From IMG/VR virus record IMGVR_UViG_3300030330_006022, positions 50,351-114,350 of that record: DNA of 64,000 nucleotides. One strand, given 5' to 3'. This DNA is from a virus. Lineage: Duplodnaviria > Caudoviricetes. The notes beneath the pieces are model-generated. The model was given only the letters and a program-made list of their open reading frames with translations. It was not told the DNA's origin and made no database searches. The position numbers and the translations under genes are program-made. Shown piece by piece: positions 11,325-64,000 of the stretch. Position 1 is the stretch's first letter. Each line of letters begins with the position of its first letter.

Positions 11325-11739
11325 TGCTGCTCTTACAATTGTGCTTTTAGGGAGCCTAGGATGTAATTTATTGGCCGCTGTTTACATTAGAGACATACTA
11401 GGTAGGCTTGGCTGGTTAACGCAAAATTTGGCTAATTTAACGGAATTAATAAGAGGTTTTCAAAACCACATTAGAGGTGTCCATGAGCTTGAGAAGTTTT
11501 ATGGAGACAAAGATTTAAAATTACTTGTTCAACATACAAGTGATTTGATAGAGGTCATGGATGATTATTTAGAGGTTGGATTGGATTCTGAATTAATCGA
11601 GGAAGAACTAACCGAGGACAACACAAATGACACAACGAAAAAGAAAACCGAGAACAAAAAGGATGTATTTTACTCAGATACACGAGGACGCGATTCTGAA
11701 GTATTGCGATCCGGCTACGACTTATCTGGAAAAGTGTGA
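11314..11739 (+). CDS. Hypothetical membrane-anchored protein
   Basis: GAGGA RBS before ATG 11314; N-terminal hydrophobic helix followed by a helical/acidic region. Confidence 0.6.
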   Translation: MTIDAALTIVLLGSLGCNLLAAVYIRDILGRLGWLTQNLANLTELIRGFQNHIRGVHELEKFYGDKDLKLLVQHTSDLIEVMDDYLEVGLDSELIEEELTEDNTNDTTKKKTENKKDVFYSDTRGRDSEVLRSGYDLSGKV

Positions 11740-12328: not shown

Positions 12329-12342
12329 TAACTAATTATTAT

Positions 12343-12630
12343 ATGTCAAAAAAATTAGATGAAATTATACAAAAAACACTCGCCAACATTGAAGAAGACC
12401 GATTAGTTACTCGAGATCTACTTGAAGATGCTATGGAATATCTTGCAAAAGATGAACATCGTCATAGAGAAATTGGTCTCACTCTAGCTAAGTATGTTGA
12501 AACTTTACAGCGTTCAAACGAACAAATGGTAAAGGTCGCTTCGCTTATTCAAAAAGAAGAAAAGAAAGAAGACGGAATCTCCAAAGAAGAAATGGATAAC
12601 ATATTTTCTGCAATTGCGGAGGAAGAATAA
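12343..12630 (+). CDS. Hypothetical helical protein
   Basis: ATG at 12343 (the track starts at GTG 12325); TAATG coupling to the next gene. Confidence 0.7.
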   Translation: MSKKLDEIIQKTLANIEEDRLVTRDLLEDAMEYLAKDEHRHREIGLTLAKYVETLQRSNEQMVKVASLIQKEEKKEDGISKEEMDNIFSAIAEEE

Positions 12631-13799: not shown

Positions 13800-13802
13800 C
13801 AA

Positions 13803-14816: not shown

Positions 14817-14824
14817 AGGAAATT

Positions 14825-17800
14825 ATGCCTGCAAAGTATCAAAGTATCAATAGGATAAAAAAAAATAAATTAATAATAAAAGCAAATAACACAGACAACA
14901 ACTCTGAGTTATATTTTTGGATTAAAGTTAGAGTGACAGAAAGTGATCCAATTGGCGATGATATAATTTATGTTAAAAACATACCTTGGCCTTTTGACAT
15001 AGAGGCTAAGTTGTATAAAAGAGGAAGACTCACTAATAATGTAAAATTTAACAAAGTGACTTATAGTAGCACTGATAAGAAATTAACGATAAAATTTGAA
15101 ACCTCAGGTGAAAAAAGTAAAAATAGAGAAAAGCATGCTCATTTTTTGAAAAAATTTAGAAACTTGAAAATGACAGAGGACAGTGGCAATAAAAAAGGGA
15201 TACAAAGATACAGAATCATACTTCAAAACGCTGCCTCTAGTGATATTAGAAACTACATAGAAGAAAATTATACCAACTTTGACTCTTTTCAAATTATAGG
15301 AGGTTTTGTAGAAAAAGGAACGTGGAAGCCTAATTCAGCATTAAAAAATGATGAAGACAAAAGTAAAGGTGATTTAATCTCTACTTTTGTAAGCGAACTA
15401 GAATATGAATCTATAAACGTCCCACCAGAAGCAAAACCAAAATCAAAAGTTGAAAGAAAAGAGTTTTTAAGCAATCTTGGTGTTAAGAAAAAAACCCCCA
15501 CTATACACGCACCTGGGCCTGTTTTTGGACATAAGCCAAAAATTAAAGCATTATCTAATAGTGATGGTTGCACACCAACTGAACTATCAGATCCAGATGG
15601 AAAAGCATCTGAGTTTTTTGAGTTATATGAAGAGGTGTGCGCTCCATTACCGGATGATGATGATATTTTGGAAAATTATCCAGATGATATATTTGTTAAG
15701 GCGTGTCCAACTTGTGTGCCTAATTTAAGCGCAACTCCTCTTGAGTGGTGGATAGAAGAGAATTTACCTAGAGATCGTGGAGAACCTTTTGAAGGTTTTA
15801 GGTATGGTCAAGTCTGGTTAAATGAAAAATTATGTGAATATAAAGTGGTGCTAAGAGATTTAGAAACTTACAGCTTAGGTGGTTTTAACGAATATACTAA
15901 TTTTAACAACAGGCAAGTTGTAATAGATAGAATGTCTCATGCAAGAAGAGCAGGTATTCAATTAATACTTGAAGAAACTGGTAAAGCTGTCACAGATAAT
16001 ATAATATGCGCTAATTTACCAAATATATCGACAGCAGATCGAGATGATTGTATTAGCATACCTTCTGATATTGAAATTGAAACATACAAGATCAACCTAC
16101 AATTTCCACCTCAAATTCAAGTTATAAAACAAAATATAGATACAGATCAAAATGATGGCACTTACATGACACTATACGGTGTCTCATCATCTGTTGAGTT
16201 TCAACAGTATCTTTTAAATCCCAAAGCATTAGAGATTTACTCTAAGTCTGAAATATATGCTTACAAAACAGCAACAGCTCAATATGCAAAACAACTAAAC
16301 CCTTGTTATGTGATATCTGTCCCAGCAAATTTGATAAATATGCAGAGTGATGATTTAGTATCTGAGGCAAATGAAAAATTTGAAGAACAATCAGAAGATC
16401 CAGATAATAAAGAGGTTGAAGGTTTAAACTCAGTTGTAATTAGAGGAACAGAACTTAATAATATTTTTAAAATAGATCTACCGAATATATTTGAGATATT
16501 TGGAGAATATCAAGCCAACTTTCTTTACTTTCAAAATGGAACTTTGAGAATCGAGACGCTTGGTGGTGGTAGCAAAAAATTCTATCTTTTTCAATATCCA
16601 CAAAAATTTAAACAATTTTATGCTGATATTAAAAATCTTTTAGAAAATAATGGATTTAGATTGCGTAACAAAGATGATGGATTCAAACACGCGTATGAAA
16701 TAAAAATTAGAGTCGATGATGAGTTTAAGATAAAAAAGGTAAAAGCAAAGTATATAGGTTGTCCTTGGAAAACATGTAGAAGAGGACTTAAAGCATTTAA
16801 AAACAAATACGCAAATGAAACAACTTTAATATCATATGTCATAAAAAGTGAAACCATGCAGAAAAATATAGGTAATGAATTACCTCCTTGGCTTGATTAT
16901 ATCATCGAGTATACATATCCAAGACTTTTGGTTTCATATGGCAACACAGACAGAGAGGTAAACTTTGAAAGCTGCCTTAACAGCGATAACAAGGACCCTA
17001 ATGATCCTGGTAGTATGGTAAATCTAGATGTAGATGAATTCTTAGAAGATTTTTTATTATCTTTAGTTAGTAGTTTTTCTGGTGCTTTACAGTACTCACT
17101 AAACAGTTTAAACTGTAGGACATTAGCTGAGTACAGTCCTTTAGGTTATGAAAAACTATTTGAACCTTTAACTCAAATGGGTCAACACCCTGACGTAGTA
17201 CAGACCATAGCAGACTATGGAGCATTTAATCAGGGCTTGGATGATGTAATTGGAATTAAATCTAAAACTAAAAAAACATATAAAAAGCTTATGAAAGGAG
17301 CTGGTTCTTTTGAATTTAATTTTTTTCAAAGATTAACAGGAGTAACTACAAAAGAATATGTCAAAGAGTTTAGGTCTAATGCTGGAGAGGCAATAGGTGA
17401 ATTGTTTACTAAAATGCGACCTTGTGATTGGGAAAAAATACTACTAGATCTTTTACGGTGTTTAATGAAAGGCTTAAACGCAAATACAGCTTTAAAAAAA
17501 ATAGCAAAAGCCTTGATGGGTGACTTAGACCCTGTTAGCTTTGCTAGAGTGTTTAAAGGATTACCACCAGAGGTTCAATTAGAAGTTCAAGAAGATATTG
17601 TAAATGCTTTAAAAAGAATACCATGGTTTGCTGAACAATACGAAGAGTTTAACATTGAAGATTTTGTTGCTTTATCTAACAATAAAACTAAAGAAAATGC
17701 AAATTCTTACGAAGAAGAAAGAGATAAACTGGAAAACCCACCGGAAACACAGCAAGCAGATCCAAGTAACGCAGATAAGATACAAAACGAAAGAGACAAT

Positions 17801-20800
17801 AAAGAGAAAAAACAAGCAGAAATAGAATCTTTAATGATAGATTATGAAGAACAGTTAGAAATTAATGAAATGTTTTTTGTAATTGAAAGTGAACTTGTAG
17901 AGTTGCGAGATAAAGATGCCGATTTATTAACACAAATTTTAGATTATAGGGTACTTGTTTCCGAAACTGGAGGAGAATTAGAAAGTTATGAACAAAGCTA
18001 TATTGATGAACTTGAAAGACAACACGAAGAAGTTAAAGCTGCAAGAATTTTAAAACAAGAGCAATATGATTTGTGGAAAAATGTTGTTTATGTAGACGAA
18101 GAAAATACAGAGTTGGTGTCTGATCTTATGCTTTATTCGATAGAATCAATAAAACAATCAATAAATAGTTCTAACCTAGCCTTACTAGAAGAACTAACAA
18201 AAGACTACAGCCCAAATGCATATGAAAAAGCCACTAGAGAAATAATAACCATCATAGGGGAAGCATACATAGACTTAATTGTAGAAAAGCTGAATATAGT
18301 TCAACTACAAAATTTAGTAGATTCTTTACCTGGTTCAGATCTCTTTGTTAGTGTTTTCAAAGCTGCTTTGTGTCCCCATAAAGAAATATTTGATGTTTGG
18401 AGTAAAGCTGCCTGGGCTGGTATGGAAATCAACCCTTGTAAAAGCACAAGTTGGAAAATTCCACCTATACCTGAAATACCAAAATTAAACTTATTATATA
18501 TATTAAACTTTTTAAAAGAACAATTTCTTTTAGCCTTAGTAAGAGCAATTGTTGCCGTGCTTATTTCGTATTTTATGAAATCTTTACAACTTCTTTTAGA
18601 CAAATTATGCGATATTTTATCGGGGGCGATGGGTGCTTTGTTTAACAATTCAGGCGAAGGTACTTTGTTTGATGCTGTAGCAGAAGCATTTTGCGATGAT
18701 TTGTTTGACACAGACGGCTCTGGAGGGGCACCTCAAGACGACTCAGGTGTTAATACAGTAATTGATGCTTTAAAACAAAATTCTAACTATTGTCCACCTA
18801 ACAAAGAAGTTAATAAAGAAGTAGTGTACAAATGGGGTCTGGCGATATCTGAGCAAGTCCCATTAGAGTTTTGGCAAAAATTAATGACAGAAGGTGGCAT
18901 AGCTGCTGAAGACCCTTTGATGCAATTAGTTTGGGAAATAACAAAGCAGTTTCCTGAAATGGAATGCTACTTTCAAGATATAAGTGATTTGTTAAGTTTC
19001 TTTAACATATTAAAAAGTTACTTACCAGAAGGCACAGCTATACAAATAGAAGACACCCTTAACACACTAGAGTACAATTCAACTGGTAACGAACTTTGCA
19101 AAATGTTTTGTTCTGATTTTAACACTGGGCTTGAAGACGACTTACCAGACTACCCTTTTGATGTTGATACCAGTGAAGTATCTCAAACATTTGAAGATTT
19201 GCTAGATGCATTTTACGGCGGCCCTGATTCCGCTTTGGAGGATTTATTAAGAGACATAGCAGATGATCCATTTTCCGCAGCTGCTTATTGTGACGATATA
19301 AGAAATGCCAATGATATAGGTGAAGACAATTTATCTGGTAAACAACCATTAGTACCACCAGAGCCACAAGAATTAACAGAACTGAGAGAAGAGATTGTGG
19401 ATTCTGTTTTTTCTAATTTAGAAGTTGCTTATAATAACGATATGATAATTGATTTTGATTCGTTCTTTAATAACCTCTTAGCAGATAAAGATAATAAAAA
19501 ACTCACTAAAGGTGAATTGTTTGATCCTTCACATGAGTTTAGAGAAAAAACAAACCTTTTGTTTCCTAATTCTGCCAACAATGCTAATGAGCACGAATTA
19601 ATGTGGTATCGTGGAGGTTTTATTAAAAAGTTCTTTATGAGAGTAAATTCAGTACTTGGAGACCCATCTTCTGGTGAGCAATCCCAAGCTTCAGCAGATC
19701 TAGATGATGTAGAAGTTGAAGATGAAGAGGGTGATGAAGGAGGTATTTTAAAGAAAGCAATAGCAAAGGCAAAAGAACTTATACAAAAATTCCAAGACGC
19801 ATTTGCAGAAAAATTTGGTTTTAATGGTCCAATAAAAACATTATTTATGATTTTTAAACTAGACTTTCCTATTGCTAGAAACCTGTTTCCAAGAACAGTA
19901 GGGATAAATTATTTAGAAAGCTTACAAGACAATAAGCCAAAATATGTATTAAAAAAACTACCATATGATAAAGAAGAGATTTGGTATGGATTTGATATTG
20001 AAGAAATTGATTTAAAATCCAACCCTTCAGCTAATGTAACTAATAGAGAATACCTACAAAAAGATGATGATATACACATATATTACGACTCACCTGAGGG
20101 TTATAGAGTTGAAACTGGTTTTTCTAGTAACTACATACCTGATCCTGAGAGTCCTAATTTTTATGCTTCTTGTTATGTCGAATATGACCAATCTGCTGAA
20201 CCCCCTGGAAGTTCAAACTTAACAGATCAAGATGATGAGGGAAATGAAGTAGCTGTATTTCCTGGCTTATTTGGCGGTAATCCGAACTCAACTAAGATAA
20301 GAGAACCAGTTTTTTCTGCTGTGGTACCAATAGATACCTCATATTATCAAAAAACATACGAAACTTATGTTGAAGGGTATACTCAAAATTCTTTAAATTC
20401 TCATTTTAGACAATCTGGTTTTTTTACTAAAAAAGAACAATTACAATCGTATGCATTTAAAAAATACATAACCTACAAAATACATGAAGAAGCAGGAATA
20501 CCAACAGATCATTTGAAATTTTCTACAATACATCCAAGTACTGACAGTCTTTACGCTACACTATATAACAGTAATAGTGACTTAAGATTTAATGATGATT
20601 ATGGTTCATTATTATTTTACGACAGAGTAGCTCAAGACGCAATAAGTGTTTTTATGAAAACCGTTTTAGGGAGTGGAACATACAGAGTAGGTAATTCCAT
20701 TCAACCTCCAAATGCTTTTAGGTTTGGCTATTCATCAGAACATAGATTAGATGGTGATGACTTAACGTATGTAGACCCTGATAAAGCAGGGCGCAATAAG

Positions 20801-23554
20801 AAAAGCCAATGGGATTATACTCACGATGAAGAAGAAAAAGTATTAGGAGTTTCTGCAACAAAAAACCAAAGAGTGGTGTTTCTAAACCCTGAAATATATG
20901 GTGGTAGTTATAAAAGACCAAAGATATATATAAAACCAGCACTTTATAGTGGAGTGTTGGGCGTTATGCAATATTTTGTACCTGAGCCTGATGGATGTGA
21001 ACCAACTAATGAAATAAAATTGTTTACTTCTGATATAAAAAAAGAAATTCTCACTATGGAAAAAAAGCTAACACGCGATAAAAGAATGAACTTTGATCCA
21101 AATTGCGTAAAAGAAGCTGCTTTTGATTTGATCGCGGACAGCTCTAGTCATGCTTATATGCATGGGTCTGTTAAGTTAACAATAAGAACTTATATACTTG
21201 AATTGTTTTTAAGATCTTTGCCGATATTTTTACAAATTAATCTGTCTGAGAAAAACTTTGATGATGTTTTTAATTCGTTTATTTTTAAAAGAATGAAAGC
21301 TGGATTACTTGAAACACCTGAAAATTTTAGTTTTAGAAAATACAGTAAAATAAAATACTGGTACTTGTTCTTAGAACAAATGGTACAGTCTGTTGAAAGA
21401 GAGGTGCTATTAGGTTCAATATATAAAGATGATAATTTGGATGAACTCTTTAAAAGAATAAGAGAGATAAGAAAAAATTATTACGAACCAGATAGAAGTG
21501 ATTGGAAAATATTGAAAAAAATAAAAAAAATAAAACTGGTAAAGGCTGGTCCAAAAGGAACAGACGATCAATATAAAGAATCAATAAACGGTAGACAATA
21601 CAAATTAAGCAGCCTTAGGGACTATGATGTGAGGTTTGAGTTTAAAGATGGTGTTGAGTATAATAAATTTGACAACAAATATAAAACTTTGCTAAAGAAA
21701 ATGGTAAAATCAGTTATACTTATTGGTCTTGGTGAAGATGGCGAGAGATATGTACAGTCAACAAATGAGTATATAAATTTTAGTGTTTGGACTATGGGTT
21801 TTAAAGAATTTAAAAATGTTTTTAGAATTTATTCAATATATCTAAACGAAGACACAGCAGAAAAAATATCTTATTATCTAATAGCTCAAGAACTAAAATC
21901 ATATATAAACCGCTTTAAAGATGATTTAATTTCTGGTTCTATGGAAGCACCTCAAGTGTTTGATATTAAAAAGTATGTACTGAACCCAGAATCAGGCCTA
22001 TCAATAGGACCAGACATATTAATAGGCACAAGAGATGCAGAGCTAACCTCAACATCTATTGAGGGATATGGAGATGTTAACGATTATACAACATTTGGAG
22101 AGAATGAGGTTTTAACAATTAACAACGCAAGTGGTTGTAGTTTTTCAACACAACAAAGAATAATAAAGTTTTTAAACAAACAAAGCGACGATTCACATGG
22201 CTATTTTATAGTTCAAAAATATGTTCTTATAACATCTGTAAAGACCCAACCACTAGGATCACCTGAAAGAATAATATACGACACTTTTAAATCATTAGAA
22301 GGTAAAAGAATATCAATAGCAAAGTTTCAAGAAAAAGTATTTAGTATAATATCATCAGGTATAACTTTTGGAAATACAGCTTCTATATCTGATTATTTCG
22401 GTGACGCTTCTCTAGATGATTCTGGAAGTGGTTACTCTGGATCTATAGGTATAAAGTTTGGTGTAAGATTGGCCTATATTAGAAATGATTTACCAGTAAG
22501 TGGTAGTAGAAAAGTTAGTGGCACAGGACTAGGTGCATTTGCACCAATCACAGTTCAGGCTGCTAATGCTGTGTTTGGTAGTGCAACTGGAAAAGTTATG
22601 CCAATAGAATTGTTAAATCATGAAGCTGATGTAGCTGATTTTCCAATGCAGGAGTTTTTGTACCAAAGGTGTTCACAAAATAATATAAGTGAAGATATTA
22701 AATGTTATTTAGATAGAATGTGTGAGAAAGAAGAGTTTGACTTTTTAATGGAATTTTGCTTTCCATTTAAAAGAGTCATATCTTTAATTATGATCAATGC
22801 TTACTATGGCTATGTGGAATCAATAGGAAAAGGAGAAGGAGAAAGATATCGTGGAGCTGAAGAGCCATATCATGACTGGAAGTACAAAATACTTCAACAA
22901 ACAAAAGAACAACTAAGAACAATGTTTTCTAGACATTATAAAGCTAGGGATATTAATATTAGTGAAAGAAGAAAACGCTCAGCAGATTGGTTGAAAGCAA
23001 ATATACCTGATGTTAACATTAATATTGATAGGCTGTCTGTAAAATGGTGGCAATTAATGAGGTTGCATGATAGGCCATATAATAAATATGGTGATGCTTG
23101 TATAGATGGAGCACTTGGTTCATTTAATCAAAACCTACCACCAGCACCAGTATCTCCTGACAACAAAGAATCAGGCGTATCAGTATCAGGTCTTACTTTT
23201 TCTGGAGGTAATACAGCGTTTAGAACTTCAACTCCTGAACCATGTGATTTGGGTAAAGTTCAAAACGGAAAACTAGGGCAACTAATAGCTGCTGAAAAAT
23301 CTTTAAAAACAGCAGGTATTGCAAAAAATTCAACTAAGAAACCACTGTTTTCTCGCGAATCTAGAAACAAAGTAGTGAAACAAATAAGAAAAAGCCCAAA
23401 TGGAAATACTAAAAAAATTAAAGAGATACCAATTAAATCAGCTCCTAGAAGAGTAGAGAAGATAACAACCTCGACATCCAAGGGTGTTAGAAATAAAATG
23501 AAGAATAATAAAACTAAAAAAGTTGGAAATCCAAAAAATTTTAGTAAAAAATAA
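14825..23554 (+). CDS. Giant hypothetical virion-associated protein (2909 aa)
   Basis: Uninterrupted 8.7 kb ORF with GAGGA RBS inside the baseplate module; central coiled coil, a hydrophobic helix and a Lys-rich C-terminus. Confidence 0.75.
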   Translation: MPAKYQSINRIKKNKLIIKANNTDNNSELYFWIKVRVTESDPIGDDIIYVKNIPWPFDIEAKLYKRGRLTNNVKFNKVTYSSTDKKLTIKFETSGEKSKNREKHAHFLKKFRNLKMTEDSGNKKGIQRYRIILQNAASSDIRNYIEENYTNFDSFQIIGGFVEKGTWKPNSALKNDEDKSKGDLISTFVSELEYESINVPPEAKPKSKVERKEFLSNLGVKKKTPTIHAPGPVFGHKPKIKALSNSDGCTPTELSDPDGKASEFFELYEEVCAPLPDDDDILENYPDDIFVKACPTCVPNLSATPLEWWIEENLPRDRGEPFEGFRYGQVWLNEKLCEYKVVLRDLETYSLGGFNEYTNFNNRQVVIDRMSHARRAGIQLILEETGKAVTDNIICANLPNISTADRDDCISIPSDIEIETYKINLQFPPQIQVIKQNIDTDQNDGTYMTLYGVSSSVEFQQYLLNPKALEIYSKSEIYAYKTATAQYAKQLNPCYVISVPANLINMQSDDLVSEANEKFEEQSEDPDNKEVEGLNSVVIRGTELNNIFKIDLPNIFEIFGEYQANFLYFQNGTLRIETLGGGSKKFYLFQYPQKFKQFYADIKNLLENNGFRLRNKDDGFKHAYEIKIRVDDEFKIKKVKAKYIGCPWKTCRRGLKAFKNKYANETTLISYVIKSETMQKNIGNELPPWLDYIIEYTYPRLLVSYGNTDREVNFESCLNSDNKDPNDPGSMVNLDVDEFLEDFLLSLVSSFSGALQYSLNSLNCRTLAEYSPLGYEKLFEPLTQMGQHPDVVQTIADYGAFNQGLDDVIGIKSKTKKTYKKLMKGAGSFEFNFFQRLTGVTTKEYVKEFRSNAGEAIGELFTKMRPCDWEKILLDLLRCLMKGLNANTALKKIAKALMGDLDPVSFARVFKGLPPEVQLEVQEDIVNALKRIPWFAEQYEEFNIEDFVALSNNKTKENANSYEEERDKLENPPETQQADPSNADKIQNERDNKEKKQAEIESLMIDYEEQLEINEMFFVIESELVELRDKDADLLTQILDYRVLVSETGGELESYEQSYIDELERQHEEVKAARILKQEQYDLWKNVVYVDEENTELVSDLMLYSIESIKQSINSSNLALLEELTKDYSPNAYEKATREIITIIGEAYIDLIVEKLNIVQLQNLVDSLPGSDLFVSVFKAALCPHKEIFDVWSKAAWAGMEINPCKSTSWKIPPIPEIPKLNLLYILNFLKEQFLLALVRAIVAVLISYFMKSLQLLLDKLCDILSGAMGALFNNSGEGTLFDAVAEAFCDDLFDTDGSGGAPQDDSGVNTVIDALKQNSNYCPPNKEVNKEVVYKWGLAISEQVPLEFWQKLMTEGGIAAEDPLMQLVWEITKQFPEMECYFQDISDLLSFFNILKSYLPEGTAIQIEDTLNTLEYNSTGNELCKMFCSDFNTGLEDDLPDYPFDVDTSEVSQTFEDLLDAFYGGPDSALEDLLRDIADDPFSAAAYCDDIRNANDIGEDNLSGKQPLVPPEPQELTELREEIVDSVFSNLEVAYNNDMIIDFDSFFNNLLADKDNKKLTKGELFDPSHEFREKTNLLFPNSANNANEHELMWYRGGFIKKFFMRVNSVLGDPSSGEQSQASADLDDVEVEDEEGDEGGILKKAIAKAKELIQKFQDAFAEKFGFNGPIKTLFMIFKLDFPIARNLFPRTVGINYLESLQDNKPKYVLKKLPYDKEEIWYGFDIEEIDLKSNPSANVTNREYLQKDDDIHIYYDSPEGYRVETGFSSNYIPDPESPNFYASCYVEYDQSAEPPGSSNLTDQDDEGNEVAVFPGLFGGNPNSTKIREPVFSAVVPIDTSYYQKTYETYVEGYTQNSLNSHFRQSGFFTKKEQLQSYAFKKYITYKIHEEAGIPTDHLKFSTIHPSTDSLYATLYNSNSDLRFNDDYGSLLFYDRVAQDAISVFMKTVLGSGTYRVGNSIQPPNAFRFGYSSEHRLDGDDLTYVDPDKAGRNKKSQWDYTHDEEEKVLGVSATKNQRVVFLNPEIYGGSYKRPKIYIKPALYSGVLGVMQYFVPEPDGCEPTNEIKLFTSDIKKEILTMEKKLTRDKRMNFDPNCVKEAAFDLIADSSSHAYMHGSVKLTIRTYILELFLRSLPIFLQINLSEKNFDDVFNSFIFKRMKAGLLETPENFSFRKYSKIKYWYLFLEQMVQSVEREVLLGSIYKDDNLDELFKRIREIRKNYYEPDRSDWKILKKIKKIKLVKAGPKGTDDQYKESINGRQYKLSSLRDYDVRFEFKDGVEYNKFDNKYKTLLKKMVKSVILIGLGEDGERYVQSTNEYINFSVWTMGFKEFKNVFRIYSIYLNEDTAEKISYYLIAQELKSYINRFKDDLISGSMEAPQVFDIKKYVLNPESGLSIGPDILIGTRDAELTSTSIEGYGDVNDYTTFGENEVLTINNASGCSFSTQQRIIKFLNKQSDDSHGYFIVQKYVLITSVKTQPLGSPERIIYDTFKSLEGKRISIAKFQEKVFSIISSGITFGNTASISDYFGDASLDDSGSGYSGSIGIKFGVRLAYIRNDLPVSGSRKVSGTGLGAFAPITVQAANAVFGSATGKVMPIELLNHEADVADFPMQEFLYQRCSQNNISEDIKCYLDRMCEKEEFDFLMEFCFPFKRVISLIMINAYYGYVESIGKGEGERYRGAEEPYHDWKYKILQQTKEQLRTMFSRHYKARDINISERRKRSADWLKANIPDVNINIDRLSVKWWQLMRLHDRPYNKYGDACIDGALGSFNQNLPPAPVSPDNKESGVSVSGLTFSGGNTAFRTSTPEPCDLGKVQNGKLGQLIAAEKSLKTAGIAKNSTKKPLFSRESRNKVVKQIRKSPNGNTKKIKEIPIKSAPRRVEKITTSTSKGVRNKMKNNKTKKVGNPKNFSKK

Positions 23555-24017: not shown

Positions 24018-24024
24018 CTATTTA
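24018..24024 (+). promoter_or_regulatory. Putative late promoter CTATTTA
   Basis: Intergenic, 18 nt before the gp6-like ATG; recurs in other gene gaps. Confidence 0.6.
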
Positions 24025-55325: not shown

Positions 55326-55332
55326 CTATTTA
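55326..55332 (+). promoter_or_regulatory. Putative late promoter CTATTTA
   Basis: Lies in a 24-nt intergenic gap, 15 nt before ATG 55348. Confidence 0.6.
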
Positions 55333-56655: not shown

Positions 56656-57171
56656 ATGATTATTTTAGGACTAGATATTAGCTCAAGTAGAATTGGGTAC
56701 TGTTTAATAAACGAGAACGAAGATTTACTTCTTGTTGATGAGATAAAGCTAAAACCATCTCAATCTCTTGAAGAACGAGCGGATATCTTTAAAAAGACTA
56801 TGGAAATTATAAAAGAACATTCGGAGGTAAATTATGTTTTCATCGAACAACCATTCATGGCATTCTCAGGAGGAAAGACAACAGCAGCGACAATGGCCAA
56901 GCTACAACGTTTTAATGGTATGTGTAGCTATGTGGTTCACCATTTATTTGGCAGTCCTGCGGTACTCCTTCAGGCGAACAAAGCTCGGGGTCTCGTTGAT
57001 CTCAAAATCAAAAGGGGTGATAATACGAAGCTCAAGGTTATTGAGTGGGTTAGCGATAAGTATCCAAAAGAATTTATAGTTGAGTACACAAGACACGGAA
57101 ATCCAAAGCCGGGAACCGATGATAAAGCCGATGCAGTTGTTATAGCAAATGCTGGATTAAAAACTATTTAG
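56656..57171 (+). CDS. ruvC: RuvC-like Holliday junction resolvase
   Basis: Acidic tetrad in ILGLDIS, FIEQPF and DDKADA. Confidence 0.85.
   Translation: MIILGLDISSSRIGYCLINENEDLLLVDEIKLKPSQSLEERADIFKKTMEIIKEHSEVNYVFIEQPFMAFSGGKTTAATMAKLQRFNGMCSYVVHHLFGSPAVLLQANKARGLVDLKIKRGDNTKLKVIEWVSDKYPKEFIVEYTRHGNPKPGTDDKADAVVIANAGLKTI
57164..57170 (+). promoter_or_regulatory. Putative late promoter CTATTTA
   Basis: Overlaps the ruvC stop codon, 19 nt before ATG 57190. Confidence 0.6.
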
Positions 57172-57189: not shown

Positions 57190-58074
57190 ATGTCAAATGA
57201 TATGAAACTTATTATGGAGTCTTGGAGATCTTCACATGTTTTAACTGAGACCAAGCAAGACCTTTTTGAAGACATTAAGTATATACAAGAAGTGTTAGGT
57301 ATAAAAATTCCTTTGAATGAAAACAATGAGTTTGTTTTAAGTGAAGAGTTAAAGAAAGAAATTATCCTAAGAGAAAACGCTTTTCAAAACTTTTTTAAAC
57401 AATTCAACCCAATAGAAGCAGTTAAAAAATATGGACAAGAAATTGGTGATCTGTTCTCTACCTTGCACGACTTAGTAAAATCACCTGAAAACCTTGACAT
57501 TTACATAGGATCAGTACACAGAAAGGTTGTTAGCCCTATACTTAGAAAAATAACAAAACTTAATGAATGGACATTATCCAAAGGAATGACTAAAGTTTCT
57601 GAAGCAATAAATAATATCCGTAAGAAAATGGCAGCTGTTGTACAATTGGAAGTTAGTTGGAAAAAAGCCATTTTAATTACTGGTCTTGTCGTTGGCGCAT
57701 ATTATCTTTTAGATGAATTAAAAGGTAAAGGAATTGATATGGCAACTCAAGGATGGTCTGAGATTTCTAAAGTGTTAACGGGCTTTGACAAAGACAAGTT
57801 ACAAAATATTTTAATGAACTTTTTTATGAAAGAGATGCCAAAAATAGCAACAAAATTGTTTGGCCTTAAAGCGGTGGCTGCTTCAACAGGTTTTGTAGGG
57901 TTTATTGTTTTAATAGTGCCGTTCATTAAGGTTTTAAATATAGCAAAAGAAGTATTAAAAGAAGCGATATTAAGGTTTAAAAGAAGATCAAAAAGAAGAG
58001 ACGATAGAGCTGAGAGAGTTAAACAAGCTAAAGCTCGCGGTGAAACAGGAATTGTACTAGAACTTGAAAAATAA
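57190..58074 (+). CDS. Hypothetical protein with an MKLIMESW leader and two hydrophobic helices
   Basis: GAGGA RBS; several (I/L)xE sites in the N-terminal part; ILITGLVVGAYYLL and TGFVGFIVLIVPFI segments. Confidence 0.7.
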   Translation: MSNDMKLIMESWRSSHVLTETKQDLFEDIKYIQEVLGIKIPLNENNEFVLSEELKKEIILRENAFQNFFKQFNPIEAVKKYGQEIGDLFSTLHDLVKSPENLDIYIGSVHRKVVSPILRKITKLNEWTLSKGMTKVSEAINNIRKKMAAVVQLEVSWKKAILITGLVVGAYYLLDELKGKGIDMATQGWSEISKVLTGFDKDKLQNILMNFFMKEMPKIATKLFGLKAVAASTGFVGFIVLIVPFIKVLNIAKEVLKEAILRFKRRSKRRDDRAERVKQAKARGETGIVLELEK

Positions 58075-58077
58075 TTC

Positions 58078-58105
58078 TTGACAAATTTTCAAAACGTGTT
58101 ATACT
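58078..58105 (+). promoter_or_regulatory. Sigma70-type promoter TTGACA-N16-TATACT with extended -10 TG
   Basis: -35 at 58078-58083, -10 at 58100-58105; GGAGG RBS at 58114-58118. Confidence 0.8.
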
Positions 58106-58123
58106 AAATACACGGAGGAAATT

Positions 58124-59059
58124 ATGGAGGAAAAAAGAAAGATACTAACCGATATTCTTGGTTCTTATCATCGTAAAGGTAATGAGCATTTGTATCATTG
58201 TCCTTATTGTAAACACCACAAGAAGAAATTGTCTGTTAACTTTGCAAATGGTTTTTTTAAATGTTGGGTCTGTGATGTTAGAGGAAAGAATATTTATAGA
58301 ATTGTTCGCTCTTATGGAGAATACAGACAACGTCAAAGATGGCTAGAGCTTGATGGAAGACTTGATCTCAAAGACTTTGATAAAATATATAAAGAAGTAA
58401 ACGAGATTCAAGAGGAACCAACTTGTGATTTACCATCAGAGATGATCTCACTTTGCAACAAGCACCTTCCTCGTTCATCAAAACGAGCACTTGACTATCT
58501 TTACAGTCGAGGAATTGATGACGATCAAATAAAGCTATGGAAGATTGGCTATTGCACAGAGGGTAGATATGGAGGGCGGATTATTATTCCGTCTTTCAAC
58601 TCAAACGGAGATCCAAATTTCTTTATTGCTCGTTCTTATGTCGGGCATAGAATGAAATACCTTAATCCAAGAACCACAAAAGACATTATATTTAATGAAT
58701 TGATGGTTGATTGGGACGAGCCTGTAACAATTGTCGAAGGTGCCTTTGATGCTATAGTTGCAGGAACACAAGGTATTCCCATACTTGGCTCAACCCTTAG
58801 ACCACAGTCTCGTTTGTTTCAAGCTCTTGCGATAAACGACACACCAGTTTATATAGGGCTTGACCAAGATGCGGAGAAGAAAGCATCGTGGATGATTAAG
58901 AAGATGATTGAATACGATATGGAGGTCTATAAAATAGACACTTCTGCTGTTGAAGACGTTGGTTCTATGACCCCACGACAATTCGAGAACGCAAAAGACA
59001 GGGCTCAGCCAATTGATCCCGACTATTTCTTTTTTGATAAACTTTTAAATGCTATCTAA
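58124..59059 (+). CDS. DNA primase (zinc finger plus TOPRIM)
   Basis: CPYC...CWVC, RIIIP, IVEGAFDA and GLDQDA. Confidence 0.9.
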   Translation: MEEKRKILTDILGSYHRKGNEHLYHCPYCKHHKKKLSVNFANGFFKCWVCDVRGKNIYRIVRSYGEYRQRQRWLELDGRLDLKDFDKIYKEVNEIQEEPTCDLPSEMISLCNKHLPRSSKRALDYLYSRGIDDDQIKLWKIGYCTEGRYGGRIIIPSFNSNGDPNFFIARSYVGHRMKYLNPRTTKDIIFNELMVDWDEPVTIVEGAFDAIVAGTQGIPILGSTLRPQSRLFQALAINDTPVYIGLDQDAEKKASWMIKKMIEYDMEVYKIDTSAVEDVGSMTPRQFENAKDRAQPIDPDYFFFDKLLNAI

Positions 59060-59072
59060 CCATGGAGGATAT

Positions 59073-62000
59073 ATGATAAAAATAGCACATTTTGCGGATA
59101 CACATATTCGTAATCTTAAATTTCATGATGAATACAGGTTTGTATTTAATCAGATATATAAAAAACTGCTAAGTCAAAAGCCGGACTATATAGTTCATTG
59201 CGGAGACTTAGCTCACACAAAGACCCAGTTGTCACCAGAGTATTTTGCTTTGGCTTCTGAGTTTTTAAAGAACCTAGCAGACATTGCACCAACCTATATT
59301 ATTCTTGGAAACCACGATGGCAATCTAAAGAATTCTGATAGAGAAGATGCTGTGTCTCCTATTGTAAATGCCTTAAACCATCCACAATTGCATTTACTAA
59401 AAAATTCTGGTCGCGTTTCACCACAACCAGGCTTATCCTTGAACGTTCTATCTATATTTGACAGAGGTGCTTGGATGCGACCAAAAAGAGGTGACATCAA
59501 TATTGCTCTTTATCATGGTGCTGTTATGGGCTCCAAGACCGGTTCTGGCTGGGCGATGGAGCACGGAGATGATGATATAAGTATATTTAAGGGTCATGAC
59601 TTTGCTATGCTCGGAGACATACATAAACCACAAATATTAGACGATGAGGGTCGTGCTCAATATGCTGGTTCCACGATTCAGCAAAACTTCTCGGAAGATG
59701 GTCGCAAAGGTTACAAGTTGTGGACAATTAAATCTAAAGATGATTTTGAATGTCAACATGTGATATTTACGAACCCTCGTCCTTTTATTACAGTTAATTT
59801 AGACAATAAAGGTAACATACCTAAGCACTATCATATCCCACATGGTTGTCGCCTTAGGTTAATCTCAACTACAAACATGGATAGCTCTTCCATACGCAAG
59901 ATTACCGATTTGGCTCGCTCTAAATATAACCCAGTCACTTTGTCCTTCTTAAACAAAGGAACCAGTAATTTTACATCCTCGGACGGTCAAGAGCACAAAA
60001 TGGAGAATATGCGAGATGTTTCTATTCAAGAACAATATATTCGAGAATATTTAAAAGATTATGAGTTAACTGAAGACTTGATGAGTCAAGTGCTTGATCT
60101 TAATACTAGATATAATAAAGAGGTCGAGAAAGTTGAAGAAGTCCGAAGAAACGTCAAATGGAATATTAAAGAAATGGAGTTCTCAAATCTATTTAATTAT
60201 GGACAAAATAATAGGTTGGATTTTGATAACCTCTCTGGAACTGTTGGCATTTTTGGCAAGAACTACAGTGGGAAGTCTTCTGTTATTGATTCTGCTCTTT
60301 ATGGCGTTTTTGGCGGAACCAGAAAGGCCGAGAAGAAAAACGTTCACCTCGTCAATCAAAATAAAACTAAAGCCTCTATCAAGATGGTGGTCGAGGCAGA
60401 CGGTCAAGATTATCAAATTACTAGGAATCTTAATAAATCTTATAAGACCGTCAAAGGAAAGTCCGTCCCTGTGGCCTCTGGTGATCTCGACTTCCACAAT
60501 ATCACTACTGATAGCTCTTGTAATGGTGATTCTGTAAAAGATACTGAAGCGAACATAAGAAAGATTTTTGGTAATATCGAAGACTTTATGATTACCTCAA
60601 TGGCTTCTCAATTGGACTCTCTTGCTTTTATTAAGGAAGGGTCAACAAAGAGAAAAAATAAATTAGCCAAGTTTCTTGATTTGGACATTTTTGAACAAAA
60701 ACTTAATTTTGCCAAAAAAGATTCAGCAGAAATTTCAGCATTAATAAAACGGTTTAAAAACAAAAAAATTGCTGAACTGCTTGTTGCAAAACAAGAAGAA
60801 GTAGAAGAAATAAATGATGACATAGATCATCAAACTGATTTGTGTAAAAAACATAATACTAGATATGAAGAATTGTTACAAGAGTATTTAAAAATAGAAG
60901 AAGAGATTAATTCTATTCCACAAACAATCATAGACATTGACGAATTGGAAGATGAGATAGATCGTCTTGATGCTGAGATACACAAAGCTGGTGTGAAGGT
61001 TTCACAAAACAAGACCAGTATAAAAGAAAATGTTTTAGCAATCGAACAAGCAGATGCTATTGTTAACTCTATAAATGAACATAGGCTTGCGCAAATCTTA
61101 GAGCAGTGTAGTGAGTTCGAAAAGTCTTTAAAAGCTTCAGAACAAGAACTACGAACCCTTAAAACCAAAGAAAAGCAATCTATTAAAAAGATCAATATGC
61201 TTCATGACCATGAGTATGATCCTGACTGTAAATACTGTTGTGACAATAAGTTTGTTAAAGATGCTACCAAAGCCAAAGACTATCTTCCAACTCTTGAAGA
61301 AGAGATTGAGGAAGTAGAAAAGATAATTGATGGCTGGAAGCTTAAAATATTTGGTCTTGATAAAGCATCTGCTGAGAAAGAGTTAAAGACTCTTGAAAGC
61401 AATGTTGTCAAAAGAGATAAGTTTGTTGCCATAAATAAAAATTTACAAATAACAAATGAATCAATTGTATCAAAAATTTCTTTGATGAAAAACCAAACAA
61501 ACTCTTTGGAAAAACAGAGAGATGAATACAATACAAACAGACAGGCTATAGAAAACCTTTCTTCTCTTATAAAATCTAAAAACGCCGTTAAACTGAAGAT
61601 GACTGAAGCTAAAGAAAGAAAAGAAAAGTGTGATAAAAAAATTCAAGATTATCTTGTTGAACTTGGTGCTGTTAAGAGTACCATCAAGAGACTCCATGTT
61701 GAGAAACGAGAACAAGATGAACTAGAAGAGTCATTTATAGCCTATGAGTTGTTCATGCGTTGTATGCACCCTAATGGTATTGCTTACGAGATTATCAAAC
61801 AGAAGCTATCTCTTATTAACGAGGAGATTCAAAAGTGTCTTGCTAATATTGTTGACTTTCAGGTTATGTTCGAGGAAGATGGTCGCAATTTGGATATTAA
61901 CATAAAGCATCCAAAGTACGACTCTCGACCTATATCTATGGGTTCCGGTGCTGAAAAAACTATTGCTGCTATGGCTATACGTCTTGCTCTAATTGAGATA

Positions 62001-62213
62001 ACCAACTTGCCTAAGTCTACTCTATTTATTATGGATGAGCCTGCTACAGCTCTTGACCAGGAGCACATGGAGGGTTTTGTTCGTTTGATTGATATGATAA
62101 AAGATAAATTTAAAACTGTTCTGTTAATTTCTCACCTCGATGTTTTGAAAGACTGTGTAGATAAAACTATTGATATACAGAAAGTTGGTGGTTATGCTAA
62201 AGTAAACTGCTAA
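59073..62213 (+). CDS. Fused Mre11/SbcD nuclease and Rad50/SbcC ATPase (T4 gp47-gp46-like)
   Basis: ADTH, GDLAH, GNHD and LGDIH phosphoesterase motifs; Walker A GKNYSGKS; CKYC zinc hook; GSGAEK signature; FIMDEP Walker B; ISH; ATG 59073 after GGAGG. Confidence 0.93.
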   Translation: MIKIAHFADTHIRNLKFHDEYRFVFNQIYKKLLSQKPDYIVHCGDLAHTKTQLSPEYFALASEFLKNLADIAPTYIILGNHDGNLKNSDREDAVSPIVNALNHPQLHLLKNSGRVSPQPGLSLNVLSIFDRGAWMRPKRGDINIALYHGAVMGSKTGSGWAMEHGDDDISIFKGHDFAMLGDIHKPQILDDEGRAQYAGSTIQQNFSEDGRKGYKLWTIKSKDDFECQHVIFTNPRPFITVNLDNKGNIPKHYHIPHGCRLRLISTTNMDSSSIRKITDLARSKYNPVTLSFLNKGTSNFTSSDGQEHKMENMRDVSIQEQYIREYLKDYELTEDLMSQVLDLNTRYNKEVEKVEEVRRNVKWNIKEMEFSNLFNYGQNNRLDFDNLSGTVGIFGKNYSGKSSVIDSALYGVFGGTRKAEKKNVHLVNQNKTKASIKMVVEADGQDYQITRNLNKSYKTVKGKSVPVASGDLDFHNITTDSSCNGDSVKDTEANIRKIFGNIEDFMITSMASQLDSLAFIKEGSTKRKNKLAKFLDLDIFEQKLNFAKKDSAEISALIKRFKNKKIAELLVAKQEEVEEINDDIDHQTDLCKKHNTRYEELLQEYLKIEEEINSIPQTIIDIDELEDEIDRLDAEIHKAGVKVSQNKTSIKENVLAIEQADAIVNSINEHRLAQILEQCSEFEKSLKASEQELRTLKTKEKQSIKKINMLHDHEYDPDCKYCCDNKFVKDATKAKDYLPTLEEEIEEVEKIIDGWKLKIFGLDKASAEKELKTLESNVVKRDKFVAINKNLQITNESIVSKISLMKNQTNSLEKQRDEYNTNRQAIENLSSLIKSKNAVKLKMTEAKERKEKCDKKIQDYLVELGAVKSTIKRLHVEKREQDELEESFIAYELFMRCMHPNGIAYEIIKQKLSLINEEIQKCLANIVDFQVMFEEDGRNLDINIKHPKYDSRPISMGSGAEKTIAAMAIRLALIEITNLPKSTLFIMDEPATALDQEHMEGFVRLIDMIKDKFKTVLLISHLDVLKDCVDKTIDIQKVGGYAKVNC

Positions 62214-62220
62214 ATCTCTT

Positions 62221-62265
62221 TGAAAAGCCTATTTAGTGTAAAAGCTATTTAGGCTTTCATTTTAT
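62221..62265 (+). terminator. Candidate intrinsic terminator hairpin containing two CTATTTA copies
   Basis: AAAGCCTA (62224-62231) pairs with TAGGCTTT (62250-62257), followed by TTTT; CTATTTA at 62229 and 62245. Confidence 0.5.
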
Positions 62266-62276
62266 GGAGATTAAAA

Positions 62277-62549
62277 ATGAAACTCACAGAAAAACAAATA
62301 AAACGCATTATTAAAGAAGAATTAAATAAAATTGTTAAAGAAAGCATGGGGCCTGATCATCCTGACTATGATTATGTTGGTGGAATTATCATGCAGACCG
62401 TTAGAAAATTTATGCATCTTGCTCCAATGGTCAAACAAGGAATGGGAAGTATGTTCGAAAATGATATTTATCATTATGTCGCCGAGCAGTCTCCTGAGCA
62501 TGCAGATTACATAACAGGAAGAGTTATGCAGATATTAAGTGAAAGCTAA
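62277..62549 (+). CDS. Hypothetical protein with an MKLTEKQIKRIIKEEL leader
   Basis: GGAG RBS, upstream CTATTTA, TAATG coupling to the next gene. Confidence 0.75.
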   Translation: MKLTEKQIKRIIKEELNKIVKESMGPDHPDYDYVGGIIMQTVRKFMHLAPMVKQGMGSMFENDIYHYVAEQSPEHADYITGRVMQILSES

Positions 62550-62824
62550 TGACAAGAGAAGAATTTTTAAAGGCAGGAGAAAAAATGGAACAAGAAAGAA
62601 AAGAAAAATTAAAAAAAGAATTGTACCTTGATAATAAAAACAAAGGAGTTCTTGACGCGATTCAAGAAAAAGCAATTTCAAGAAAATTGCTTGTGTTCAT
62701 TTCAGCAACAGCTTTATTGTGGAACGCACAACTAGACCCTGAAACTTGGGGAATGATTGCTATGATGTATATTGGTGGACAAACTGCTGTTGACTTTGCC
62801 AAAATGTGGCGACACGGTGGTTAG
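62549..62824 (+). CDS. Small membrane protein, holin-like
   Basis: Charged N-terminus, then SRKLLVFISATALL and WGMIAMMYIGGQ hydrophobic segments. Confidence 0.5.
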   Translation: MTREEFLKAGEKMEQERKEKLKKELYLDNKNKGVLDAIQEKAISRKLLVFISATALLWNAQLDPETWGMIAMMYIGGQTAVDFAKMWRHGG

Positions 62825-62826
62825 TC

Positions 62827-63162
62827 ATGATCTGGTTGTACAAAGCAAAGAATTGGATTGTAGCTCATAAGAACTGGTTAGTTCTTGTGGGTTTGTTCAT
62901 TTTGTCTTATGTACTTGGAAGACGATCAAACCAAAACTATTTGGAAATGGCAAACTTAGCTAAAGATCAATACAAGAAGGAAAACGAAGAACTTGAGCGT
63001 TTACAGAAAGCAAAGCAAGTTCGAGATAAGAGAGCAGAACAAAAAGCAAAGGCTGTCAAAGCTGCGCTTGAAGTTGAAAAAGAAAAACGATTAAAAGAGT
63101 TAGAAAAACAAAAAGCCAACCCTGATGATGTTTTTAAAGATTTAGGAATAACAAAGAAATGA
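62827..63162 (+). CDS. Membrane-anchored coiled-coil protein (i-spanin-like)
   Basis: WLVLVGLFILSYVLG TM segment followed by an E/K/Q/A-rich coiled coil. Confidence 0.5.
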   Translation: MIWLYKAKNWIVAHKNWLVLVGLFILSYVLGRRSNQNYLEMANLAKDQYKKENEELERLQKAKQVRDKRAEQKAKAVKAALEVEKEKRLKELEKQKANPDDVFKDLGITKK

Positions 63163-63554
63163 TTTTATTTTTACTGTCTGCATTAGCGTGGGGACAACCA
63201 CCTGAATATACATATCTTGAAAGGGGAATGGAAGCTCCGTTTTCTGGTCGCTTGTTCAACGACACAGCATCTCAATTATTGTCAGATAAAATAGCAGACG
63301 CAACAGATAGATGCCAAATAGAGATGGACTATCAGATTGGTATGCTTCTTGCAGAGAAAGAACAAGAAATAAATAAACTTAAGTCTCAACACAAACTCGA
63401 TAAAGGAACGCTTGAAGCAGAAATTCAAGCTTTAGAAGAAAGAATTATGGGTTTAGAAAAAATAAAAACCCCACCAAAAAAGAAGTTTTGGTTTTCGTTT
63501 GGACTAGTTACTGGAGTAGGAATTACTATAATAATAGCACAAGCGGTGAATTAA
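63159..63554 (+). CDS. Signal-peptide protein with a coiled coil and C-terminal TM helix
   Basis: MILFLLSALAWG signal, APFSG.L motif, KKKFWFSFGLVTGVGITIIIA. Confidence 0.6.
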   Translation: MILFLLSALAWGQPPEYTYLERGMEAPFSGRLFNDTASQLLSDKIADATDRCQIEMDYQIGMLLAEKEQEINKLKSQHKLDKGTLEAEIQALEERIMGLEKIKTPPKKKFWFSFGLVTGVGITIIIAQAVN

Positions 63555-64000
63555 TGGCAATAACAAAAAAAGATATCATGAAAATGATAAAAGAAGAATT
63601 AAAAAAAGTTCTTACGGAAGATCTTTCGTTATTAAGAGATATGACTCCTCAAGATGTTTTGGAATATATGAGACGGGAACTAAATGGGAAAACATGGTTT
63701 TTTTGGGATTTAGAATCTATAGGCTTTAATGGACAAATAACTCAATATGGAGCTATAGCTTATAAAATTGTTGATATTGACGGATCAGCTCCAATTGAAC
63801 CAATTGCTGAGTTTGACGTGAACGTTGCCTTAAACGAAGAAACTTTAAAAAAATACGTTATGCAACAAGACATTTTAAACAGAGCTGCTGAAATTGTACA
63901 ACAATACGAAGAAACAAATCAGGTCACAAGTGAGTTAGAATTTATTCTTAAAGCACAACAAGAAAAAGAAGAAGGAAGACCATACACAGTAGCTGATATG
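63554..64000 (+). CDS. DEDD-family 3'-5' exonuclease-like protein with an IKEEL leader (3' truncated; absent from the ORF track)
   Basis: My translation: MAITKKDIMKMIKEELKKVLTEDLS...TWFFWDLESIGFNGQITQYGAIAY (ExoI DxE motif); open to the window end; TAATG coupling. Confidence 0.65.
   Translation, partial: MAITKKDIMKMIKEELKKVLTEDLSLLRDMTPQDVLEYMRRELNGKTWFFWDLESIGFNGQITQYGAIAYKIVDIDGSAPIEPIAEFDVNVALNEETLKKYVMQQDILNRAAEIVQQYEETNQVTSELEFILKAQQEKEEGRPYTVADM

Follow-up and report, generated by a model that had tools for sequence, protein, structure and literature searches.

The window analysed here is the final 64 kb (64,000 nucleotides) of IMG/VR record IMGVR_UViG_3300030330_006022, a 114,350-bp linear contig, without terminal overlap, of an uncultured marine T4-like phage. 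GC content is about 33%, and the + strand carries almost every gene. The subject of the analysis is a set of short conserved N-terminal sequences (leaders) carried by three proteins encoded on the + strand near the end of the window, at 57190, 62277 and 63554. The gene at 57190 (57190..58074) encodes a 294-aa protein and lies between a RuvC-like resolvase gene (56656, +) upstream and a DnaG-type primase gene (58124, +). A fused SbcD-SbcC gene follows, with a 1054-aa open reading frame (ORF) on the + strand at 59049-62213, in which SbcD matches Metallophos and SbcC matches AAA_23 and SMC_N. The 90-aa protein of 62277 (62277..62549, +) is encoded next, and its gene opens a coupled run of genes (62277, 62549, 62806, 63159 and 63554, all +) that overlap by 1, 19, 4 and 1 nt. 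The last of these (63554..64000, +) is the 5' part, 149 codons, of a gene for a 352-aa predicted DEDDh exonuclease and is interrupted by the contig end. A first-pass annotation of the DNA had quoted the N-termini of the three proteins exactly, and had rightly placed 57190 and 62277 among replication genes (those for the resolvase, primase and SbcCD adjoin) and 63554 in one coupled run with 62277.

The leader designated type 1 has the form MK[IL]T..QL.QIIKEEL, extends over 16-22 residues and is found on 62277 and 63554. Residues 1-22 of 62277 are MKLTEKQIKRIIKEELNKIVKE (62277..62342, +), with I-K-E at 12-14 and V-K-E at 20-22, and residues 1-22 of 63554 are MAITKKDIMKMIKEELKKVLTE (63554..63619, +), recognised by both the pattern and a profile hidden Markov model (HMM). 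The likeness between the two proteins is confined to residues 1-24 (46% identity); past residue 24 there is no similarity, in agreement with the earlier description of the remainders as unrelated. The type-1 profile, built from 18 representatives, gave 49.7 bits for 62277, 38.7 bits for 63554 and -10.7 bits for 57190, which is not a member. The proposal of a leader common to all three proteins thus holds for 62277 and 63554 but not for 57190, which carries a different leader.

Six-frame translation of the 114-kb contig contains six matches to the strict type-1 peptide pattern. The matches, each starting at residue 4 of a coding-strand ORF, are at genome positions 628, 28378, 29789 and 36783, and window positions 62277 and 63554. 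Weaker variants occur at genome 2631 and 29181. In leave-one-out runs, the omitted leader was the top non-training match in 6/6 cases. A scan with a leader HMM had been suggested in the first-pass annotation, and it showed clear N-terminal enrichment. The set scanned (the clade set) comprised the contig and 14 loci of relatives (305,680 bp, both strands). In all 38 matches at an expectation value (E) of ≤0.01, the first model position coincides with a start codon (37 ATG, 1 GTG), and neither internal nor opposite-strand matches were found in this set at that threshold. As some loci of relatives overlap or are near-identical, the 38 matches correspond to 31 unique proteins. Five leader-holding records have 2, 4, 8, 6 and 10 matches at E≤0.01, and two half-genome relatives have 8 and 6 at E≤0.1.

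Restriction to the N-terminus was also seen on a wider scale. An IMG/VR DNA-pattern scan for KQIIKEE[LF], in which a start codon was not demanded, returned at least 131 stretches from 13 of the 64 parts of the collection (extrapolated total ~630). Among the matches listed, 132 of 147 distinct occurrences are preceded by a start codon at a distance of exactly 8 codons (125 ATG, 6 GTG and 1 TTG, the lone TTG case, in a 13-codon frame, being probably due to chance); of the others, 8 are preceded by a Met at 6-11 codons, 1 is at the edge of a locus and 6 look internal or chance-like. When the profile was run against 1.84 billion cluster representatives (50% identity), 4,719 proteins matched at E≤0.001 and 33 at E≤1e-10, and 147 of the best 150 of the 4,719 matches have a copy at residue ≤4.

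M1, I12 and E14 are invariant in the 18 representatives, and conservation is high to residue 16 and has faded by residue 22. Synonymous codons vary among type-1 leaders while I12 and E14 remain constant, and selection therefore acts on the peptide. An element acting at the DNA or RNA level was rejected for type 1 on account of the variable synonymous sites and the unconserved upstream DNA.

The leader of 57190 belongs to a second family, type 2, of the form M..MKLIMESWR..[LIVM]xE. Its residues 1-20, MSNDMKLIMESWRSSHVLTE (57190..57249, +), read MSND-MKLIMESWR-SSHVLTE and thus contain I-M-E and end in L-T-E. The string MKLIMESWR was found in 92 IMG/VR stretches, representing 70 distinct occurrences; the distance to an in-frame stop is ≤50 codons in 70/70 and ≤8 codons in 44/70, and 5 occurrences lie in frames of ≤16 codons. 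At one locus of a relative, L012, two adjacent, otherwise unlike genes both begin MSNQMKLIMESWRKKVL.E. Eight of 13 homologues of 57190 were examined, and the leader or a variant of it (MNLIMENWR, MAIKLIMENWR) is present in all but one, a 165-aa form with a different start. The cargo of 57190, i.e. the part past the leader, is all-helical and basic (net +12) with a transmembrane (TM)-like stretch at residues 223-241, and no Pfam or PHROG family matched the protein.

A third N-terminal style, MK[IV][KR][IV]..K..[IVL]-x-E in the first 11-14 residues, was noticed on unrelated proteins of 78-440 aa. It occurs in the contig before the window (30665, 33610 and 38331) and in relatives (L016:11276, L017:1757, L017:13278 and L242:3939). 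In + strand frames of the contig, 4/4 matches to its 5-residue pattern are at the first Met of an ORF, and the gene at 33610 has CTATTTA 8 nt upstream.

Both leaders include a fixed hydrophobic-x-Glu motif, which is I-K-E (residues 12-14) for type 1 and I-M-E for type 2. A second such motif usually falls where the leader similarity stops. In a wide sample of leader proteins, [LIVM]-x-E ends at residue 21 or 22 in 58% of 128 type-1 proteins, compared with 0-5% per position from 23 to 45, and at 14-16 in 81% of 64 type-2 proteins, compared with 0-11% further on; these end positions lay outside the search patterns. In AlphaFold models, the mean predicted local distance difference test (pLDDT) score of the exonuclease is 90.8, with residues 13-21 below 50, and that of the 57190 protein is 72.3, with residues 1-23 below 50. 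As modelled, the leaders look detachable, being low-confidence segments beside better-modelled cores.

The heptamer CTATTTA lies directly before 57190 and 62277, as had been pointed out at first pass. The copy at 57164..57170 (+), which shares bases with the stop codon of the RuvC-like gene, lies 19 nt ahead of the 57190 start codon (ATG), and a pair at 62229 and 62245 (+) precedes the ATG of 62277 by 41 and 25 nt. Both members of the pair are enclosed in a hairpin, AAAGCCTA...TAGGCTTT, with a T-rich tail (62224..62257, +), which could be the SbcCD terminator, the 62277 promoter, or both; the matching place at L017:1757 has a perfect palindrome and a T-run. Other copies on the + strand are 18 nt before a gp6-like baseplate wedge gene (24018..24024) and 15 nt before a 423-aa gene at 55348 (55326..55332), and the gene for an acidic, core-like 191-aa protein in the contig also has one. 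Across the contig there are 19 forward and 4 reverse copies; 10 of the 19 lie ≤60 nt upstream of a start, in windows that account for 6.7% of positions. In these upstream windows CTATTTA is the top-ranking one of 105 same-composition words. In relatives, the word precedes the genes for the portal and a gp22-like scaffold and, also within the head region, two genes of no known family, one (139 aa) immediately downstream of the protease gene and the other (119 aa) farther along. By comparison, the primase gene is preceded by a TG-extended sigma-70-like promoter, TTGACA-16-TATACT (58078..58105, +), and so, with a similar element, is the resolvase gene; in L012, promoters of this kind stand before the primase and SbcCD genes.

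Judged by the genes that follow it, CTATTTA probably serves this phage group as its late promoter word, and it behaves as the first-pass annotation had supposed. A gp55-like late sigma factor is weakly indicated (phrog_234, 4.4e-4; no Pfam match). The late promoter word of T4, TATAAATA, shows no strand bias in the contig (8 forward, 9 reverse) and was found upstream of 0/127 type-1 and 0/64 type-2 genes in the wide sample. CTATTTA is not specific to leader genes: only one of the eight type-1-like genes of the contig (six strong, two weak) has its own copy, and in the wide sample a copy lies ≤80 nt upstream in 11/127 type-1 and 15/64 type-2 genes (reverse complement, 0 and 1). The idea of a portable cassette of late promoter and leader is partly supported. 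The leader is portable, with at least 16 cargo families in this clade, but a cassette at the DNA level (promoter word, ribosome site and leader) was seen for type 2 only, at window position 57164 and twice, with different cargo, in L012, where the string upstream of 57190, aaaaCTATTTAga[c/t]ataaagaggaaa, recurs before two other type-2 leader genes.

The portal genes at L012:14208 and L016:7855 have a near-consensus sigma-70-type promoter, TTGACA-N17-TATAAT, followed directly by CTATTTA, an arrangement that suggests both early and late transcription. The portal gene at L017:8033 has the sigma-70-type promoter, and the exact CTATTTA is absent there.

Relatives that are 79-95% identical in window proteins extend beyond the exonuclease gene into a head module, whereas the present contig ends short of it. 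The module encodes a T4-like large terminase, a T4-type portal (8.9e-77), a gp21-type protease of the Peptidase_S77 family (8e-35 and 1.4e-32), a gp22-like scaffold and a Gp23 capsid protein (5.8e-72). The gp21-type protease is present in the close relatives G002, L016 and L017, and in G002 one type-1 gene lies directly after the portal gene and two directly before the protease gene (L242:7297-7941). The N-terminal region of the capsid protein in relatives keeps L-L-E-G and L-E-N-Q, as in T4 gp23, which suggests that the specificity of the protease has been kept. Of the 10 largest leader-holding records, 9 have the protease; the remaining one is 62% complete. This co-occurrence was rejected as a discriminating test; a record with a chance-like leader match has the protease too, because T4-like phages dominate large marine contigs. 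A homologue of ribosomal protein S21 (phrog_21469, 1.5e-12) is encoded within the head module at L017:13952-14158 and L242:8350-8556.

At the contig start, a ClpP-like protease gene (Pfam, 1.6e-32) adjoins the gene for the acidic 191-aa protein and two leader genes. The ClpP-like protein, which bears the PHROG name of a head protease, was dropped as the main candidate for that role once the gp21-type protease had been found in relatives. The 191-aa protein of this region (contig positions 50-1749) is very acidic and has a conserved N-terminus, MRKKLLSEAQVRRFQSLASIKPLNE, that ends in L-N-E, and CTATTTA lies upstream of its gene. Genes for the ClpP-like protease, an amidase with a peptidoglycan-binding domain, a variable large leader protein and a phage GroEL are located nearby. 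The arrangement is also listed for L004, L006, L008 and L009, and for L018:7659-8123.

The cargo of the leaders is diverse. BLASTP sorts the 31 unique proteins of the clade set, taken past residue 24, into 16 groups; genome 28378, genome 29789 and L012:8931 form one paralogue cluster. The presence of leader genes at equal slots differs between the window and L012. Complete type-1 proteins of the wide sample have 54-207 aa, over half of them fewer than 100. Pfam (E≤1e-4) names 4/128 proteins of the wide sample, all type 2: a Zeta_toxin/AAA_33 kinase, a DUF2441 protein and two GNATs. In G002, Pfam finds a type-1 AAA_33 kinase (5.5e-13). The two type-1 genes just upstream of the gp21-type protease gene in that relative (L242:6091-7307) have cargo resembling an AAA_33 P-loop kinase and, by a weak match, the cyclic phosphodiesterase domain of tRNA ligase (6.7e-5, below the cut-off), and together they would form an RNA-repair-like pair. 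The cargo of 62277 is small, acidic and of no known family, and a 16-residue indel is found in its relatives immediately after the leader. A Protein Atlas look-up of 62277 returned unnamed viral clusters alone, all below 0.9.

By predicted structure and motifs, the 63554 cargo is a DEDDh 3'-5' exonuclease of the DnaQ/TREX/RNase T fold. Exo I (D-x-E), Exo II and Exo III (H-x4-D) motifs are present, and the catalytic residues D52/E54, H187-N188...D193 and H284...D289 are invariant in 38 sequences. Foldseek matched the model to a DnaQ domain (TM 0.74-0.76), TREX1/2 and RNase T; the Pfam RNase_T score is 21.5 bits, under the cut-off of 24. The leader is kept in 11/11 exonuclease homologues examined, down to 43% identity. 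Searches of cultured phages gave no match for the region by megablast and none by tblastn for the exonuclease or a 547-aa leader protein; tblastn with a 32-aa leader gave a single weak match.

On the basis of the T4 analogy and the motif statistics, we consider, with a probability of roughly 0.55, that the type-1 and type-2 leaders are capsid-targeting propeptides of the T4 kind. Late in infection, the leader genes would be expressed together with head genes, and the leader would confer affinity for the prohead core, so that the protein is built into the prohead. A gp21-type prohead protease would then cut after the Glu of [LIVM]-x-E and free the cargo inside the head. For type 1, the candidate cut sites are I12-K-E14 and about L20-x-E22; for type 2, with residues numbered from MKLIM, they are I-M-E and an L-x-E at about 12-14. 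The cargo would afterwards either be expelled like scaffold or stay with the DNA and enter the next host. Core binding, cleavage and packaging are steps that we infer by analogy, and injection is less certain still. The capsid-targeting interpretation is favoured because the leaders are restricted to the N-terminus and portable, with a cut motif at the end of the similarity. It is favoured also because relatives have a head module with a gp21-type protease, the leaders look detachable, T4 offers a precedent, and 57190 and 62277 have CTATTTA in common with head and baseplate genes.

Several observations weigh against a capsid-targeting role. Peptidase_S77 was not found in the contig, which is truncated and by CheckV estimate 63% complete, and in complete records leader genes are often clustered and often far from the protease gene. 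A ClpP-like protease, present in 4/5 leader-rich records, co-occurs almost as well. The helical moment of type 1 (0.288, against 0.218 ± 0.111 for shuffled sequences) is not clearly amphipathic, so that type 1 was rejected as a strongly amphipathic helix; the type-2 leader is moderately amphipathic. The cargo is net negative in 73% of 104 type-1 and 89% of 28 type-2 complete proteins, in contrast to the basic IPII (+4) and IPIII (+9) of T4, and acidic cargo fits expelled core proteins better than DNA-bound cargo. A conserved DnaQ-like exonuclease encoded between replication and head genes could act as a cytoplasmic replication enzyme. The type-1 profile had no match at E≤10 in the T4 genome, in a search made without a positive control. 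Finally, 115 of the best 150 library matches hold more than one leader copy, inside longer ORFs, in a ranking that favours multi-copy proteins, and internal copies are not required by targeting alone. Met is the first residue of 78 internal copies in these 150 proteins but not of another 53. In many cases hydrophobic-x-E-[N/G/S]-K comes just before the copy, resembling a translated ribosome-binding site, which suggests fusion of tandem leader genes.

Examples of long ORFs with 2-4 leader copies, some internal copies being Met-less, are P0127, P0128, P0132, P0145 and P0143, among others, and their junctions resemble translated Shine-Dalgarno sequences (..E-N-K-M..). Such ORFs could encode genuine polyproteins or have arisen by fusion of tandem genes. 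If the protease cuts leader motifs, such proteins would be split into modules.

One alternative accepts the same targeting and cleavage and takes the leader proteins for accessory components of the prohead core or scaffold, like T4 gp67, gp68 and gp22, which would fill or shape the prohead and, ahead of DNA entry, be degraded and expelled rather than injected. The cargo is mostly small and acidic, like T4 gp67 and the 191-aa protein, the latter having its own conserved N-terminus ending in L-N-E and CTATTTA upstream. In relatives, moreover, leader genes occupy the slot between portal and protease that T4 genes 67 and 68 occupy. Enzyme cargo (the DEDDh exonuclease, the AAA_33 kinase and the GNATs) is hard to explain in this way, as are thousands of different cargo clusters. 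The basic cargo of 57190 with its TM-like stretch resembles more closely the SPN3US ejection protein gp47 (PMC5694885). A purely scaffolding role for the leader proteins is considered unlikely.

A role unrelated to the capsid is rated lower again. The leader would then be a tag for timed degradation by host ClpX together with the ClpP-like protease of the phage, a handle for the phage GroEL, or an enhancer of translation starts. Compatible with this are the frequency of ClpP-like genes in leader-rich records, the position of the ClpP-like and GroEL genes next to leader genes in the contig, the placement of 57190, 62277 and 63554 among replication genes, and the A-rich codons of the leader. Selection on the peptide, evident from varying synonymous codons beside an I12 and E14 that never vary, speaks against it. 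Two unrelated leaders, furthermore, converge on a terminal [LIVM]-x-E, for which a ClpX or GroEL tag offers no reason, and the genes share their upstream motif with those for the portal, scaffold and baseplate. The leader may resemble N-terminal recognition motifs of ClpX.

That the proteins form a single fast-evolving paralogous family in which only an N-terminal helix is conserved, the leader not being portable, is highly improbable: some cargo groups are true paralogues (genome 28378, genome 29789 and L012:8931), but distinct folds such as DnaQ/TREX, the AAA_33 P-loop kinase and the GNATs cannot be, the cargo forms 16 separate BLASTP groups, and a variable linker with a 16-residue indel directly follows the leader.

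Within the capsid-targeting interpretation, a further step may be contemplated, for which we see rather less than an even chance. Abundant marine T4-like phages might load a very large and quickly changing set of thousands of protein clusters by means of at least two interchangeable tags and inject them along with the DNA as anti-defence effectors acting in the first minutes. The arsenal so delivered, put forward just as tentatively, might include nucleases, kinases, acetyltransferases and a membrane-active protein.

Were the tags to function as they do in T4, a simple N-terminal motif would mark thousands of unannotated ocean phage proteins as capsid-internal, and part of the viral "dark matter" would become a defined, testable class of candidate injected effectors or core proteins. 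The cargo-loading principle of T4 would then be general and modular, with several tag families per phage, and packaging tags would be at hand for phages of marine and flavobacterial hosts. Should the proteins also be injected, the tags would allow injected phage effectors to be found in ocean metagenomes from sequence alone, and could serve directly as packaging tags when non-coli phages are engineered.

Some features of the region lie outside this argument. Three translationally coupled small genes without leaders (91, 118 and 131 aa; 62549..63554, +) separate 62277 from 63554. Two of the products have TM-like stretches, one N-terminal and followed by a charged coiled region, the other C-terminal after a signal-like start. 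They are candidates for lysis, spanin-like or exclusion proteins, the only Pfam result being a weak SieB match (0.0065). The SbcCD ORF overlaps the primase gene by 11 nt, and in L012 a 102-aa type-1 leader gene with two copies of CTATTTA is interposed between the two. Before the window, at about 10200-22700 of the contig, a paralogous island holds more than 20 small genes (50-75 aa) with the N-terminus M.[VI]GDLV.

A full-text literature search found no description of either leader string, or of capsid-targeting sequences (CTS) of this kind in marine phage or cyanophage contexts; at the level of literature listings, CTATTTA was not described as a late promoter. The nearest isolate by terminase (48% identity) is Flavobacterium phage vB_FspM_immuto, which has its own leaders of similar style (MKKSQLRQIIKEAL.. 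and MKKSQIVKAVQEVLEE..), one of them between portal and protease genes. An immuto protein has an N-terminus similar to that of the acidic 191-aa protein of the contig.

Known systems offer three points of comparison. Encapsulin cargo-loading peptides are likewise short and portable and direct unrelated cargo inside an HK97-fold shell. Unlike the leaders, they usually stand at the C-terminus, are not known to be cleaved off by a protease and form part of cellular compartments.

In the giant phages phiKZ, 201phi2-1 and SPN3US, diverged gp21 homologues process head and ejection proteins, and many head-internal proteins are cut after Glu within a three-residue motif (PMC5694885, PMC9026906). The first 15 residues of SPN3US gp53 and gp54 are identical on diverged paralogues, the propeptides have multiple cut sites, and one ejection protein has a TM segment (PMC5694885, PMC9026906); for gp47 of SPN3US, the TM domain is in the mature part (PMC5694885). 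The giant-phage motif is S/A-x-E (PMC5694885), whereas the motif here is L/I-x-E. Most giant-phage propeptides exceed 100 residues, and those cases are known from mass spectrometry, the present one from sequence.

The closest counterpart is T4, in which the CTS of IPI, IPII, IPIII and Alt, and likewise the gp24 propeptide, are removed by the prohead protease gp21. In T4 the first 10 residues of IPIII suffice for head incorporation, foreign proteins can be packaged with the CTS, and the internal proteins are diverse except for the CTS (PMC9026906, PMC3012670). Cleavage by gp21 is after L/I-x-E, matching the (I/L)-x-E rule cited at first pass, and replacing the cut-site Glu by Asp prevents processing while leaving targeting intact (PMC9026906). 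The leaders described here are longer (16-22 residues, against 10) and have two cut motifs, at least two families occur in one phage, the cargo clusters number thousands, the genes are scattered, including among replication genes, and the promoter word is CTATTTA rather than TATAAATA. The likenesses are a short N-terminal leader common to otherwise unrelated, fast-changing proteins, and a hydrophobic-x-Glu at the leader end (I-K-E, L-x-E and I-M-E here; I-A-E in IPII and IPIII and L-R-E in gp24 of T4). The T4-type head with Peptidase_S77 is matched in relatives of the phage. T4 ipII and ipIII, in which the first 11 residues are common and the first 30 nt identical before the sequences diverge, likewise form a cassette at the DNA level, as does type 2 here.

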